From sequence record OR544956: a stretch of DNA of 64,000 nt; one strand, given 5' to 3'. Under the pieces are notes generated by a model. The model was not told the DNA's origin, did not search any database, and worked only from the letters and a program-made list of their open reading frames with translations. This document shows positions 46,346 to 52,220 of the stretch, in pieces. Each line of letters begins with the position of its first letter. The first letter of the stretch is position 1. The position numbers were made by a program, and so were the translations under genes. This DNA comes from Escherichia phage vB_EcoM_EP57.

Positions 46346-47140
46346 TTGAGCAAGTTGAATACACTTGATCAATATTACACTAACCCCGCTTATGCGGGGT
46401 TCTTATGTGATAAGATCAAAGAAATTTTTGGAGAGGAAGCTAACTACGTAGAACCATCTGCGGGAGAAGGAGCTTTCTCTTTTTGTTTTAAAAACATAAC
46501 TTCTTTTGATATTGATCCTAAGTTTGAAGATTGTATTGAGGCAGATTTTTTAGCTCAATCTGTTGAGTCTGTTGGTAGTGTAACTGCTTTTGTCGGTAAT
46601 CCTCCGTTTGGAAAAAATGCCAGTCTTGCCATTAAGTTCTTTAACCATTGTGCTGAAATGTTGGATAACGAAGGTGGTATTTGTTTTATCTTGCCTCGCA
46701 CATTTCAAAAAATCTTTTTTGCACACAAACTAAATCCCCACATGCATCTTCTTTACGAAGAAGAATGTCCAAAAGGATCTTTTATTCTTCATGGAGAACC
46801 TTGGGATGTTCCTTGTGTATTCCAGATATGGATTAAACGCAACGAGAAGCGTTCTCCCGTTGTTTTAGGAGAAAATCGACTGTTCGTATTAGGTAACAGT
46901 AAAGACTACGACATAGCCGTTAGGAGAGCGGGAGCAAGTGCAGGTAAAGTGTTATCAGAAGAAGATTCTTTATCTGAAGCATCTACCTACTTTTTAAAAG
47001 CCTTGACTTCTGATCTTAAAACACGTATCATTGAGGCTTACCCGTTACTTAAAGCTGAAGCTAGTAAAACTGCGGGAGTAAGAAGTTTAAGTTTAAAAGA
47101 ACTTCAGTGGGTTCTGGAGAACATTAGAAAGGAGGAATAG
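46346..47140 (+). CDS. DNA N6-adenine methyltransferase
   Basis: SAM motif EPSAGEGAF and catalytic GNPPFG. Confidence 0.65.
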   Translation: MSKLNTLDQYYTNPAYAGFLCDKIKEIFGEEANYVEPSAGEGAFSFCFKNITSFDIDPKFEDCIEADFLAQSVESVGSVTAFVGNPPFGKNASLAIKFFNHCAEMLDNEGGICFILPRTFQKIFFAHKLNPHMHLLYEEECPKGSFILHGEPWDVPCVFQIWIKRNEKRSPVVLGENRLFVLGNSKDYDIAVRRAGASAGKVLSEEDSLSEASTYFLKALTSDLKTRIIEAYPLLKAEASKTAGVRSLSLKELQWVLENIRKEE

Positions 47141-49737
47141 TGAGTAAGTTTACATGGGATATTGAAGCAAACGGATTGTTGAATAATGACACTATTGATT
47201 ATTTAGCTAGTCCTTATCGTCTCAAAGACACATTTCAAATGCACTGTATTGTCTTAGAGAACCATGAAACAGGAGAAATAGTAGCTTTCCACGATGGCCC
47301 TAAATACATCTTTGATGGGCGTCCTTATGAAGAGTCAGATGGTAAATACACATATGTTCTTAAAGAGTATGTGGCGCAAGATTACACACATTTTCAACTA
47401 AAAGATTTCCCAGATTTTATTAATCATGAAGGTTATTTTAAAGATAAGCCTGAATATCTGGTTGAAATGGCTGTGGCTCACAACGGTATCAACTACGACT
47501 GGTTGGCTACAAAACTGTTTTATGGATTAGATTACAGTGTTAAATATAATACGTGGGGCAAAAATAAGGTAAAACTTATTGACTCCTTGATTTTGAGTAA
47601 AGTGTTAAACCCAGATCGAAAGATTGAGGGCAAATCAGGACATAGCTTGGCAGCACTTTCTCGAAAAGCAGGTGGTGATGTAAAAATAGATTTCCGTAAA
47701 GAGATTCCAGAAGAAGATCGATTTAAGACTTTTGCTGCGGATATGCTTTATTACTGTATCTATGACAACAAAGCCAATACGAGCGTATATAATTACCTTA
47801 TGGAAGAATGGGGTGATTATGATAAATGGGAAGGTCCATTTGAACTTGAACAACGTGTAGCAGACATTATTACACGTCAGGAACACCGTGGATTTGCTTT
47901 TAACATGAAACAAGCAGAAGAGAACCTTGCTTTTTTGGATGCAGAAATGGAGCGTCTTCGTTTACTCGTTGAGCCTATTTTGCCACCTAAACCAGCAACA
48001 AAAGGTTATCTTAAGGCTTTTATTCCACCTAAGTTGCAAATTAAAAAGAACTTAGAGCCAACTAACCATATGATCAATTTTGCTAAGAAACATGATGGTC
48101 ATTTGGAAGAGAGGGATGGCGATTGGTGGTTAGTTATGTTGGGGAAAGAGTGGAAACTGCCAGTTGCAGCAGATGAGCCTCTATGTGATCCTAACATCCC
48201 TGCAACATTGAACGATACAACCCATATTAAAAACTGGCTTGTAGGATTAGGTTGGGTACCGTCTGAATATAAAGATAAAGACTTGACGCTTAAATCTGGC
48301 ACCAAAATTAAAAAGAGCGAGGAAGAACTTCAGAAAGGTATTCGAGCTTACGTTGAGCAAACTCTATCTTCTAATTTTTGTCAGGATCGTTGTGATCATC
48401 TGGAGTGCACACCGGAAACCTTGGAAAGGAAGATTCAAGAGCGTATAGCAAAAGGTAAAGGTCGCGGTCTTAAAGTATTGACTAACCCGTGTTTTACCAA
48501 AGGTCAGGAAAAAGAAATTTGTCCTAACCTGCAAGCTTTGGGTGAGAAGTTTCCTTATGCTACACAGATTGTAGAATACTTAACGTATAAGCATCGTAGG
48601 AACTCTATTTTAGGTGGCGGTGCTGATTGGGAAGAAGATGAAGAAGATCAAGAATACGATAAAGGTTTCTTAGCCGCAGTAAGGGCGGATGGTCGTATTC
48701 CTACCCCAGCAGCTACATGTGATGCTGCAACCTCTCGTATGAAGCATAGGTCTGTAGCTAATATTCCTCGTGTCACATCTTTGTTTGGATGGGAGATGCG
48801 TAACTTGTTTGGTGTAGAGGTTCCTAAATACTTCCAGATTGGCTACGACTTCGACTCTTTGGAAGCAAAAATTGAATCACACTACTGTTGGCGGTACGAG
48901 CCGGAGCCACACGAATATTGTAACGCTCTGTTATTAGAGAAACCTAATGATGTTCACACAATGATGGCAAAACGTATCACTGAAACTATCGGACGTAAAT
49001 TTGAACGTAGTCCTGCTAAATCTGTTAAGTATGGTATTACCTATGGTGCACAAGCCGACAAGGTTGCTAAAACAATTGGTAGCGATAAGTTTACAGGTCA
49101 ATTGGTGTTCGATGCTTTCTGGGAAGCTGCATTCCCATTGGCGCGTCTTAAAGAACGTTTAAACGATTTCTGGGTTAAGACTGGTAAACAATATGTTTTG
49201 GGTATTGACGGTCGTAAGGTTCCTACTCGTTCTGCTCACGCGATTCTTAACTCTCTGTTCCAAAGCGGCGGGGTTATCTGTGCTAAACGTGCAATGGTTA
49301 TTTATGACGACATGATCGAAGAAGAAGGGCTAAGTGTTGACTTCTTTAAAGATGACTGGAAGAATAAAGATTTCGTGCAACAAATGATTGCATATCACGA
49401 TGAAGCCCAGCTTGAAGTTTCTCGTAACCTTGTAGAATTTAAATGGTTTTCACCTGAATCATTAGGTTGGAAGAAAGTAGACGATCCTGAAGAACAAAAG
49501 AAAATTGATAAAGAATGCCTTGCTAAAGTTGAAGAATGGAAGCATAATAAGGAAAAAGAGACGGGACAAATTTGGGCTAACATTCATGAATCTCCCAAAG
49601 GTGGATGGTTTACAGCCTATAGTCGGGCAGGTGAACTTGCTGCTTTAGCTGTTACTAAGGCTGGAGAATTTTACAATCTTAACGTTCAGCTTACTGCCGG
49701 ATATGATGTGGGTAACTCTTGGGCGTCCTGTCACTAG
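47140..49737 (+). CDS. family-A DNA polymerase with 3'-5' exonuclease domain
   Basis: DIEANGL exo motif, K..YGITYG motif B, YHDE motif C. Confidence 0.85.
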   Translation: MSKFTWDIEANGLLNNDTIDYLASPYRLKDTFQMHCIVLENHETGEIVAFHDGPKYIFDGRPYEESDGKYTYVLKEYVAQDYTHFQLKDFPDFINHEGYFKDKPEYLVEMAVAHNGINYDWLATKLFYGLDYSVKYNTWGKNKVKLIDSLILSKVLNPDRKIEGKSGHSLAALSRKAGGDVKIDFRKEIPEEDRFKTFAADMLYYCIYDNKANTSVYNYLMEEWGDYDKWEGPFELEQRVADIITRQEHRGFAFNMKQAEENLAFLDAEMERLRLLVEPILPPKPATKGYLKAFIPPKLQIKKNLEPTNHMINFAKKHDGHLEERDGDWWLVMLGKEWKLPVAADEPLCDPNIPATLNDTTHIKNWLVGLGWVPSEYKDKDLTLKSGTKIKKSEEELQKGIRAYVEQTLSSNFCQDRCDHLECTPETLERKIQERIAKGKGRGLKVLTNPCFTKGQEKEICPNLQALGEKFPYATQIVEYLTYKHRRNSILGGGADWEEDEEDQEYDKGFLAAVRADGRIPTPAATCDAATSRMKHRSVANIPRVTSLFGWEMRNLFGVEVPKYFQIGYDFDSLEAKIESHYCWRYEPEPHEYCNALLLEKPNDVHTMMAKRITETIGRKFERSPAKSVKYGITYGAQADKVAKTIGSDKFTGQLVFDAFWEAAFPLARLKERLNDFWVKTGKQYVLGIDGRKVPTRSAHAILNSLFQSGGVICAKRAMVIYDDMIEEEGLSVDFFKDDWKNKDFVQQMIAYHDEAQLEVSRNLVEFKWFSPESLGWKKVDDPEEQKKIDKECLAKVEEWKHNKEKETGQIWANIHESPKGGWFTAYSRAGELAALAVTKAGEFYNLNVQLTAGYDVGNSWASCH

Positions 49738-50154: not shown

Positions 50155-50373
50155 ATGCGTAAACTAGTGAGCTTTAATGTTTCAATTCTTATTGATGAAC
50201 AAAATGAAGATGTTATTAAAGGTCTTGCAAATAAGATTGCAGGTGGAATGACGGAAGCTGAAGTGTGGGAAGAATGTGCTCGACTTTATGAGGAAGGTGT
50301 TATTGAGGTCTTGGGAGATGAGATTAATATGGACGATATTGTTAAAGTAACTGTGGAGCGTATCAATGACTAA
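50155..50373 (+). CDS. hypothetical protein (72 aa)
   Basis: ORF with AAGGAG RBS. Confidence 0.55.
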   Translation: MRKLVSFNVSILIDEQNEDVIKGLANKIAGGMTEAEVWEECARLYEEGVIEVLGDEINMDDIVKVTVERIND

Positions 50374-50868
50374 ATCAAAACAAATCAATATTGCCAAAGA
50401 AATTCTTACCGTATTAAAGATCGCTGATCCTAATTCTGTCTTGGCTGGCGGTGCTGTTCGTGATTGGCGTATTCTTGATATTGCTGGACGTGATCTGGAT
50501 TTTTACACATCTCTTCCTGCACATCGGAAGGTGTTACTGGTCTTAAACACGTTTTTGAGTTTGAACGTGATGGTCAGCTTTGCAACCTTATGATTATGGA
50601 ACCAAGCGTAATGACAACCTTTCTAAATGAGTTTGATCTGTCCATCTGTCAAGCTGCATTTGATGGGAAGGATTGTTATTATTCTAAAGATTTTGAAACA
50701 ACCTTGGAAACAGGGATCTGCTTCTTGCACAAAGATGTTAGAGAAGATGCCAAACACGTTATTAAAATTGCTACACGTTTCCCATATCTTCGTTTTGTGA
50801 AAGAGGTTAAGGTTCCACGTCCACCTCAAGTAGATACCAGATTGGAAGAAGATGATATTCCTTGGTAA
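50366..50868 (+). CDS. Pol-beta-superfamily nucleotidyltransferase, frameshifted
   Basis: GGAVRD and DLD motifs; C-terminal part continues in another frame. Confidence 0.45.
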
Positions 50869-50875
50869 TTAAAGC

Positions 50876-50905
50876 TTGACAATATTAAACATTTTATGAT
50901 AGGAT
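50876..50905 (+). promoter_or_regulatory. sigma70-type promoter
   Basis: TTGACA-N18-TAGGAT. Confidence 0.5.
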
Positions 50906-50913
50906 AGCATTCA

Positions 50914-51306
50914 ATGACTGAACGTTCTAAGATAGCTGTTGAAACTGTTTATGGAAACTATACCAGTTTGACACTAGTTGAGAAAAATGTTGTAGGTCTT
51001 GACAACTCTTTTTATTTTCAAATTTTGGTTATTCAAGGTGGAAACAAGAAGCTAACTGCTCGTGTTGAAACATCTGAAATAATTGAAACCACTGTTACAA
51101 ACAAAGAATTCATTTCACTGCAAGATACAATCCGAAACGTTATAGACGAAGAAGGCAAAGCTGCCACAATTAAACTCGGAGGTTTCCCAGTGCAAATAGT
51201 TCATTTTCCTAATGGTGAAATTGGAGTTGGAATAGGTAAAGGTAAATACCTGTTAGAGCAAGATGATATGGAAAGACTCCGCTCTTTCTGTGCAAAATTA
51301 ATGTAA
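50914..51306 (+). CDS. hypothetical protein (130 aa)
   Basis: ORF. Confidence 0.55.
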   Translation: MTERSKIAVETVYGNYTSLTLVEKNVVGLDNSFYFQILVIQGGNKKLTARVETSEIIETTVTNKEFISLQDTIRNVIDEEGKAATIKLGGFPVQIVHFPNGEIGVGIGKGKYLLEQDDMERLRSFCAKLM

Positions 51307-51322
51307 TGTAGAGGAGATAATA

Positions 51323-52210
51323 ATGTCCGTAATTAATACTGAAACTGATCGTAAAGGCAAAACCGTAACTTATGCAACTGGTATCGTAGACTACGTTAAA
51401 CTGGATAAATTCGCTGAACCTAAAACTTTCCATTGGGAAGGAAAAACGATTGTTTCAACTCACCGAGCTTCTCTTGTTCTGAAAGAGAAAGGTGCTAAAC
51501 CAGATGAGAAAGGTGTTTGGATTTCTCTTGGTGACATTGAACTGAAAGAAGGTTATGAAAACCTGCAAGTCAAAGAAGGTGATAACTGGATCACTATTGA
51601 AAAAGGTGTAGAAGTAAGTATTGATATTGATCGCGTTGATAATAAAGGCGGTAAAACTTACTACAATACTAAAAAATCTCGTATTACAGTATTGTCTACC
51701 GAGGGTGTTCAGAAGTCTAACAAATCTTCTGGCAATAAGGGGTCCAACGATGCGGCTCCTAAACAATCCTATAAAAAACGTGATACTGTAGGTCTGGAAA
51801 CTGGTCACGCAGTAAATGGTGCACTGGAACTGATTCGTAATGGTGTTAAAGGCGATGCTTTCGATATTGCTGGGGTTGTTCAATCTGCAACTGTCACGCT
51901 GAAATCTGAAATTGCTGAATCTCGTGGCGTTGATATTAATGATTATGATCTTGGGGCATCTGTTGGTCACGCTATTCTCAATGCTTGTAAAGACCATACT
52001 ATTAAGACTGTCTCTGTAGAAGATCTGATTGATTCTGCTCGTAAAGTTCTGGCTCTGTCTGATAAAGTTGCTGCTGCCATTCGTGGTTCAGCAGAACAGC
52101 CTAAGAAAGAAGAGAAGAAAGAAGTTAAGAAACCTGAACCACAACCAGAACCAACTCCAAGTAATCAAGAAGAACCTCCAATGGACTTCGACGATGATAT
52201 TCCATTCTGA
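51323..52210 (+). CDS. putative ssDNA-binding protein
   Basis: acidic C-terminus MDFDDDIPF as in E. coli SSB; optimised codons. Confidence 0.5.
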   Translation: MSVINTETDRKGKTVTYATGIVDYVKLDKFAEPKTFHWEGKTIVSTHRASLVLKEKGAKPDEKGVWISLGDIELKEGYENLQVKEGDNWITIEKGVEVSIDIDRVDNKGGKTYYNTKKSRITVLSTEGVQKSNKSSGNKGSNDAAPKQSYKKRDTVGLETGHAVNGALELIRNGVKGDAFDIAGVVQSATVTLKSEIAESRGVDINDYDLGASVGHAILNACKDHTIKTVSVEDLIDSARKVLALSDKVAAAIRGSAEQPKKEEKKEVKKPEPQPEPTPSNQEEPPMDFDDDIPF

Positions 52211-52220
52211 TCTTATTGAT

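Follow-up and report, generated by a model that had tools for sequence, protein, structure and literature searches.

The SSB-like gene analyzed here lies in a window of 64,000 nucleotides, the whole stretch of DNA studied, from Escherichia phage vB_EcoM_EP57 (sequence record OR544956). The C-terminus of the encoded protein reads ...QEEPPMDFDDDIPF (also written ...SNQEEPPMDFDDDIPF), and the features of the gene and of the sequence directly upstream are as follows:

50876–50905, + strand: match to a sigma-70-like promoter, TTGACA-18-TAGGAT with an extended -10 TG (10/12 matches), 5' of the ORF pair
50914–51306, + strand: conserved 130-aa ORF directly 5' of the SSB-like gene, phrog_16560 ("unknown function", E 1e-76)
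51311–51316, + strand: Shine-Dalgarno sequence GAGGAG, 6 nt 5' of the ATG, read directly from the sequence
51323–52210, + strand: complete coding sequence of the SSB-like protein, ATG start, TGA stop, 295 aa
51323–51712, + strand: predicted OB-fold domain (residues 1–130), the presumed ssDNA-binding module, from structure models
51713–51781, + strand: disordered basic linker (residues 131–153), net charge +6, pLDDT <50 at residues 131–149
51782–52081, + strand: four-helix domain (residues 154–253) of two homologous helical hairpins, pLDDT ~91–97
52082–52171, + strand: low-complexity disordered spacer rich in P/E/K/Q (residues 254–283), low pLDDT
52172–52207, + strand: SSB-Ct acidic tip (residues 284–295), EPPMDFDDDIPF, identical to that of E. 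coli SSB

At the DNA level, the gene shares 98–99% identity with 64 Phapecoctavirus records (phAPEC8-like, Stephanstirmvirinae; ~150-kb myoviruses). These near-identical phages came from E. coli, Shigella and Klebsiella, which confirms the enterobacterial host that an earlier note on this sequence had proposed. In an annotated relative with 98.6% identity, the order on the + strand is primase/helicase, methyltransferase, DNA polymerase, four small ORFs, a nucleotidyltransferase-like gene, the 130-aa ORF and the SSB-like gene, so that the gene indeed follows replication genes on the same strand, as had been stated. It is the last gene of this + strand replication cluster and is convergent with tail-fibre genes; in the window, its stop codon and that of the convergent gene are 10 nt apart. 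The description of its codons as highly optimized for E. coli is true in a relative sense: with E. coli-optimal codons making up a fraction (Fop) of 0.652, the gene ranks first among the 62 window ORFs of at least 99 aa.

The 130-aa ORF showed no match in Pfam, NCBIfam or PADLOC. It occupies the same slot in phAPEC8_ev052, ESCO5, ZCKP1 and nieznany, while in rV5-type phages this slot is filled by a different ORF of 121 aa (phrog_7310). An operon with the SSB-like gene or a functional partnership is possible. The promoter match upstream of both genes provides only a weak lead as to what drives their expression, with four promoter-like sites observed in the region, not above the 4.3 expected from shuffled sequences.

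The SSB-like protein belongs to phrog_4477, a family of "unknown function" (E 2.4e-97). A word-indexed search returned 136 homologues with full-length coverage down to ~31% identity, and tblastn placed the gene in 337 phage records, ranging over phi92-like, rV5-like (Vequintavirinae) and PVP-SE1-like phages as well as phages of Pectobacterium, Cronobacter, Serratia, Pantoea and Proteus. When 1.84 billion cluster representatives were searched exhaustively with an HMM, 320 clusters were recovered at E ≤1e-3 and 219 at E ≤1e-10. In GenBank, the gene is mostly labelled "hypothetical protein", with a few entries as "SSB" or "single-stranded DNA-binding protein". The analysis proposes a function for a gene that occurs in over 300 large myoviruses of enterobacteria (phAPEC8-, phi92-, rV5- and PVP-SE1-like), several of which are used in phage therapy. 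The family is un-named, yet it has already been flagged as SSB-like by databases and by a 2026 preprint; the present work contributes a map of the domains that includes the duplication in the helical region, locates the DRT10 escape sites, and provides evidence for a sole SSB and for conservation of the tip across the family.

About 20 records labelled "Campylobacter phage" (MG0656xx, e.g. MG065645.1 and MG065635.1; host C. jejuni) also carry phi92- or rV5-like versions of the gene. These versions show either 97–98% DNA identity to rV5-type E. coli phages or ~62% protein identity to the window gene, the latter resembling phi92-type E. coli phages. The C. jejuni host labels of these records look doubtful.

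Structure prediction, which the earlier note had asked for as a check on an OB fold, gave an OB-type beta domain at residues 1–130 in two independent models, and the best structural neighbors of this predicted region are ssDNA-binding OB folds. The domain contains conserved aromatic (H47, W66, W89, Y114) and basic (K34, K41, K84, K111) residues. In the four-helix domain, each hairpin opens with a GxxxG-H-A motif (G157..G161-H162-A163 and G211..G215-H216-A217), and G211 and G215 are invariant in the family. The domain arose by an internal duplication: hhalign paired residues 150–205 with residues 206–256 at a probability of 91% (E 1e-6), compared to a probability below 1% in control comparisons with the OB domain. 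The four-helix domain is presumed to serve as an oligomerization or partner-binding module. The spacer that follows has pLDDT values <50 at residues 261–285 in one model and of ~54–63 over residues 261–290 in the other. Analogous to the intrinsically disordered linker of E. coli SSB, it is where conservation of the protein is lowest (mean top-residue frequency 0.33).

Outside the tail, sequence comparison did not connect the protein to known SSBs. The Pfam search returned no family, PF00436 included, and the NCBIfam SSB model NF006533 matched only the tail, with 22.8 bits against a cut-off of 260. Similarly, only the last 14 residues aligned when the family profile was compared with E. coli SSB by hhalign, and sequence and profile searches of the PDB matched SSB chains at the tail only. 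The view that the N-terminal 200 residues are unlike canonical SSB stands with regard to sequence; their description as one unrecognized body can be refined to two domains, a predicted OB fold and the duplicated helical domain. It is highly improbable that the protein does not bind nucleic acid at all, with the OB-like barrel accommodating a protein or other ligand and the tail tethering an adaptor or regulator to host SSB partners. For such a role in transcription regulation, the SSB of phage N4, which acts on RNA polymerase, would be a model.

The comparison with other SSBs places the protein in a family of its own. While the body of E. coli SSB (PF00436; PDB 1eqq, 1kaw) is without sequence homology to that of the window protein and tetramerizes via its OB, the window protein has the extra duplicated four-helix domain between OB and linker, and its linker is P/E/K-rich instead of G/Q/P-rich. 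Canonical-type phage SSBs, such as those of the drexlerviruses ACG-M12 and morffagbaw and of HK620 (PMC5928155), share the DDIPF or DDDIPF end with the window protein. However, they are ~150–165 aa long, annotated as SSB and Q-rich in the tail, and they lack a helical domain, whereas the window protein belongs to the separate family phrog_4477. No sequence or fold similarity was found to the prototypes T7 gp2.5, T4 gp32 and the PC4-like SSB of T5. These three nevertheless set a precedent, being phage-specific SSBs whose C-terminal tail is acidic, and all of them trigger ssDNA-sensing defence; T7 gp2.5 requires its terminal Phe to contact the polymerase and helicase of the phage.

The match of the C-terminus to the tip of E. 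coli SSB, the central claim of the earlier note, proved to be exact. The last 12 residues are identical (12/12) to those of K-12 SSB (NC_000913.3) and also to those of the PDB SSB chains 1eqq and 7f2n; from amino-acid composition alone, the chance probability of this 12-mer is ~1e-16. As in the host protein, a disordered linker leads to a DDDIPF tip with Phe as the last residue. Seven of the 11 synonymously variable tip codons differ from those of the host ssb gene, which indicates that it is the protein sequence whose identity is maintained, and that the match does not stem from recently copied host DNA.

Conservation within the family peaks at the tip, where the mean top-residue frequency is 0.82 and P294 and F295 are invariant, compared to means of 0.56 in each of the two folded domains and 0.33–0.38 in the linkers. 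All 120 first-round representatives keep xPF, 103 of them at the very C-terminus and 17 with an extension after it. A further 138 more distant representatives include 96 with an [ILVMC]PF end, 5 with xP[WY] and 12 with another acidic tail and a terminal aromatic residue. Judged by this conservation among first-round and distant representatives, the tail is an ancient and integral module of the family. Several distant members (P0141, P0149, P0166, P0167, P0186 and P0204) end in ...IPFN, ...VPFN or ...IPFS, and the one extra residue after Phe would mean that the free Phe carboxylate is lost.

An exact host copy that is also the most conserved part of the protein would suit a different main function, namely that of a host-takeover or anti-nuclease factor which acts through its copy of the SSB-Ct as a decoy for the host hub. 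Such a factor would titrate or redirect SSB partners (ExoI/SbcB, RecQ, RecJ, Ung), with ssDNA coating as a secondary activity, and the high codon adaptation would fit an abundant competitor. This main rival explanation is nonetheless unlikely. It would leave the phage without an SSB of its own, and it would make both the OB fold and the position in the replication cluster needless. Moreover, the OB domain contains conserved aromatic and basic residues and is on a par with the helical domain in its degree of conservation. The two roles are compatible, and the same SSB protein probably acts as a decoy in addition.

We consider it likely that the gene encodes the replicative or recombinational ssDNA-binding protein of this phAPEC8-like phage. 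The complete ESCO5 genome, in which the gene is 97.9% identical at the DNA level, contains no other gene annotated as SSB. When E. coli SSB, T4 gp32 and T7 gp2.5 were compared with all stop-to-stop segments of ESCO5 and the window, the only match was that of the tail to the SSB-like gene, and no other ORF among these segments combines an acidic tip with a terminal Phe. The proposal of a phage SSB made in the earlier note is accordingly reinforced by the predicted OB domain, by the lack of a second SSB candidate in this phage type and by the strongest codon adaptation of all window genes. With a sole SSB candidate, its position in the replication cluster and its top codon adaptation, the replicative SSB is the best reading.

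A role as an accessory of recombination or repair, for example as a mediator or annealing helper, while the host SSB serves the phage forks, is decidedly improbable. It would be in line with the observation that unrelated drexlerviruses have tip-bearing ssb genes adjoining genes for Erf-like annealing proteins, that phages of this size often rely on recombination-dependent replication, and that RdgC-like and exonuclease genes are found elsewhere in ESCO5. However, the protein has no similarity to Erf, RecT, Rad52, Sak or UvsY in Pfam and PHROG, and no recombinase gene adjoins it, its neighbors being the polymerase, the primase/helicase and small ORFs. The top codon adaptation likewise fits a stoichiometric coat protein.

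For the replicative SSB, we infer ssDNA binding, oligomerization through the helical domain and the use of host partners. The N-terminal OB domain would coat ssDNA at the phage forks via its conserved aromatic and basic residues, and the duplicated four-helix domain would provide self-association and possibly contacts to phage replisome proteins. The disordered spacer would present the C-terminal tip, which, being identical to that of the host, could dock into the same pockets of host SSB partners, including ExoI, RecQ, PriA, RecG, the chi subunit and others, and possibly into phage proteins as well. Partners bound in this way might either be recruited to phage ssDNA or be competed away from it. 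The family can now be described as combining a predicted OB fold with a duplicated domain of GxxxG-H-A helical hairpins, followed by a disordered spacer and an SSB-Ct identical to that of the host. It is a tractable system for studying the way in which the interactome of the host SSB is shared or captured by a phage SSB whose tip is a perfect copy. It also suits the question of how ssDNA-sensing defences distinguish phage from host SSB.

A link to such a defence is provided by the BASEL phage Bas52. Both escape mutants of this phage against the reverse-transcriptase defence DRT10 (UG17) map to Bas52_0087 (D252V and Y351C), a protein called SSB-like via Phold and AlphaFold2 and described as containing a pair of OB folds, a disordered C-terminus and the tip FDDDIPF (bioRxiv 10.64898/2026.04.29.721553). 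Expression of Bas52_0087 alone was non-toxic in the presence of DRT10, while overexpression of the SSB partner ExoI/SbcB attenuated the DRT10 defence that this protein triggers (bioRxiv 10.64898/2026.04.29.721553). This attenuation lends indirect support to the hijacking of host SSB-interacting proteins that the earlier note had suggested, which is plausible. DRT10 protects against Stephanstirmvirinae too, the escape mutants having been mapped in Bas52, and the region of the escape sites was described as a putative oligomerization interface (bioRxiv 10.64898/2026.04.29.721553).

We found bas52_0087 (QXV84166.1, Escherichia phage RudolfGeigy/Bas52, Vequintavirinae) and the near-identical bas55_0086 to be rV5-type homologues of the window gene. 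BLASTP aligned bas55_0086 in two HSPs, one in the OB region (E 8e-13, 35% identity) and one spanning the helical region and the tail (E 7e-16, 33%). The Bas52_0087-type protein belongs to the same PHROG-level family, has the same FDDDIPF tip and is encoded at the same position, downstream of the DNA polymerase after a small ORF. However, it comprises 408 aa compared to 295 aa in the window protein. Where the latter has its 23-residue linker, the rV5-type carries ~110 aa extra, consisting of a Q-rich stretch and a small beta domain (about residues 137–247 of bas55_0086), which are absent from the window protein. Without this segment, the window protein represents a single-OB minimal form; the "second OB" of the preprint is not part of it, and it is an architectural variant that is still a member of the family.

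The escape residue D252 aligns with D154 of the window protein, a residue shared by at least 90% of sequences and located immediately ahead of helix 1, and Y351 aligns with A250 in the last helix. According to this alignment, both DRT10 escape sites fall within the helical domain. The two published substitutions thereby obtain a structural frame, which is extended to the Stephanstirmvirinae.

In 17 of the 120 family representatives, 15–17 residues follow IPF, for example ...DDDIPF-APIGLQYGRNFLHCF; the capped form of the tip peptide PPMDFDDDIPF reads ...IPFAPIGLQYGRNFLHCF. Where it occurs, a free-standing HNH cassette sits exactly after the Phe codon of the tip, and the stop codon is replaced by 15–17 codons. 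The window is cassette-free at this site (52205–52220), with the 3' end of the ssb gene reading ...GATATTCCATTCTGA..., while the 99%-identical contig L002 matches the window DNA up to the Phe codon and then enters the cassette (L002:3886-4399). There, an ORF of 164 aa with Cys-pair and HNH motifs (phrog_2340 "endonuclease", E 1.5e-48) is followed by a terminator hairpin. All six cassette-bearing alleles encode this Phe by TTT, and the window by TTC. The 15-residue-extended form is also carried by the cultured phages ZCKP1 (L010) and nieznany (L011:2386-2899).

Further HNH cassettes are located in morffagbaw (L012:1182-1641), in ACG-M12 (L013:1155-1611) and on contigs L014–L016. The same HNH family is found with the same junction after the short annotated ssb genes of unrelated drexlerviruses (ACG-M12, ...EDDIPF-APIGLQYGMSNIYVL; morffagbaw, ...DDDIPF-ASVGLQYGKHRIYAL). 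The cassette targets the tip-coding end of canonical-type phage SSB genes just as it does in relatives of the window gene, and thus occurs in two unrelated SSB gene families, the phrog_4477-type and the short drexlervirus ssb. Over the first seven appended codons ([AS][PS][IVL]GLQY), 50 synonymous and 21 conservative non-synonymous differences were counted at six junctions, summed over 15 pairwise comparisons, which suggests selection on the appended peptide itself. On L014, the HNH-type ORF after the extended SSB-like gene P0099 (L014:3674-4216) ends in ...VIPEIKIPF, an IPF end that is non-acidic.

The pockets of SSB partners bury the terminal Phe and anchor its alpha-carboxylate, and deletion of this Phe abolishes binding (PMC10164576). 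Given this need for a terminal Phe with a free carboxylate, a capped tip should bind poorly. AlphaFold2 gave no confident structure for the cap extension. Since cultured relatives carry the capped tip, the data suggest that a free tip is advantageous, yet not strictly essential for growth or plaque formation in culture. One explanation, which we regard as a long shot, is that the SSB tip is a contested interface. The phage tip would compete for ExoI-type partners, an activity sensed indirectly by DRT10-like defences, while the tip-coding end of at least two unrelated ssb families would serve as a homing site for HNH elements and a selected peptide would cap the Phe. Should the tip be inactivated or retuned by this cap, whether for evading SSB-sensing immunity or for a new choice of partners, this would amount to a mobile element editing the interaction hub of a phage SSB.

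Upstream in the replication cluster, the nucleotidyltransferase-like gene ("tRNA nucleotidyltransferase/poly(A) polymerase") is a single ORF of 197 aa in phAPEC8_ev052 and ESCO5. In the window (50366–50868), a frame-breaking deletion of 91 nt splits it into ORFs of 75 and 92 aa, which reflects either a pseudogene or an assembly error. The encoded end reads ...RLEEDDIPW in the window (50821–50865) and ...KLEEEDIPW in ESCO5 (L007:49452-50000), which makes it a second acidic tip similar to SSB-Ct. In a set of 2105 stop-to-stop segments from the window and the ESCO5 genome, an acidic ...IP[F/W] end is found only in this gene and in the SSB-like gene. The nucleotidyltransferase-like protein may dock onto the same partner pockets as the SSB tip.

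The DNA polymerase ORF also varies among the relatives. It encodes 865 aa in the window (47140–49737) and in phAPEC8_ev052, 1110 aa in ESCO5 (L008:672-4004) and 1189 aa on contig L002, where an extra ORF of 198 aa follows right after the polymerase (L002:1-740 and 768-1364). These length differences suggest an insertion, a fusion or another mobile element in some of the relatives.
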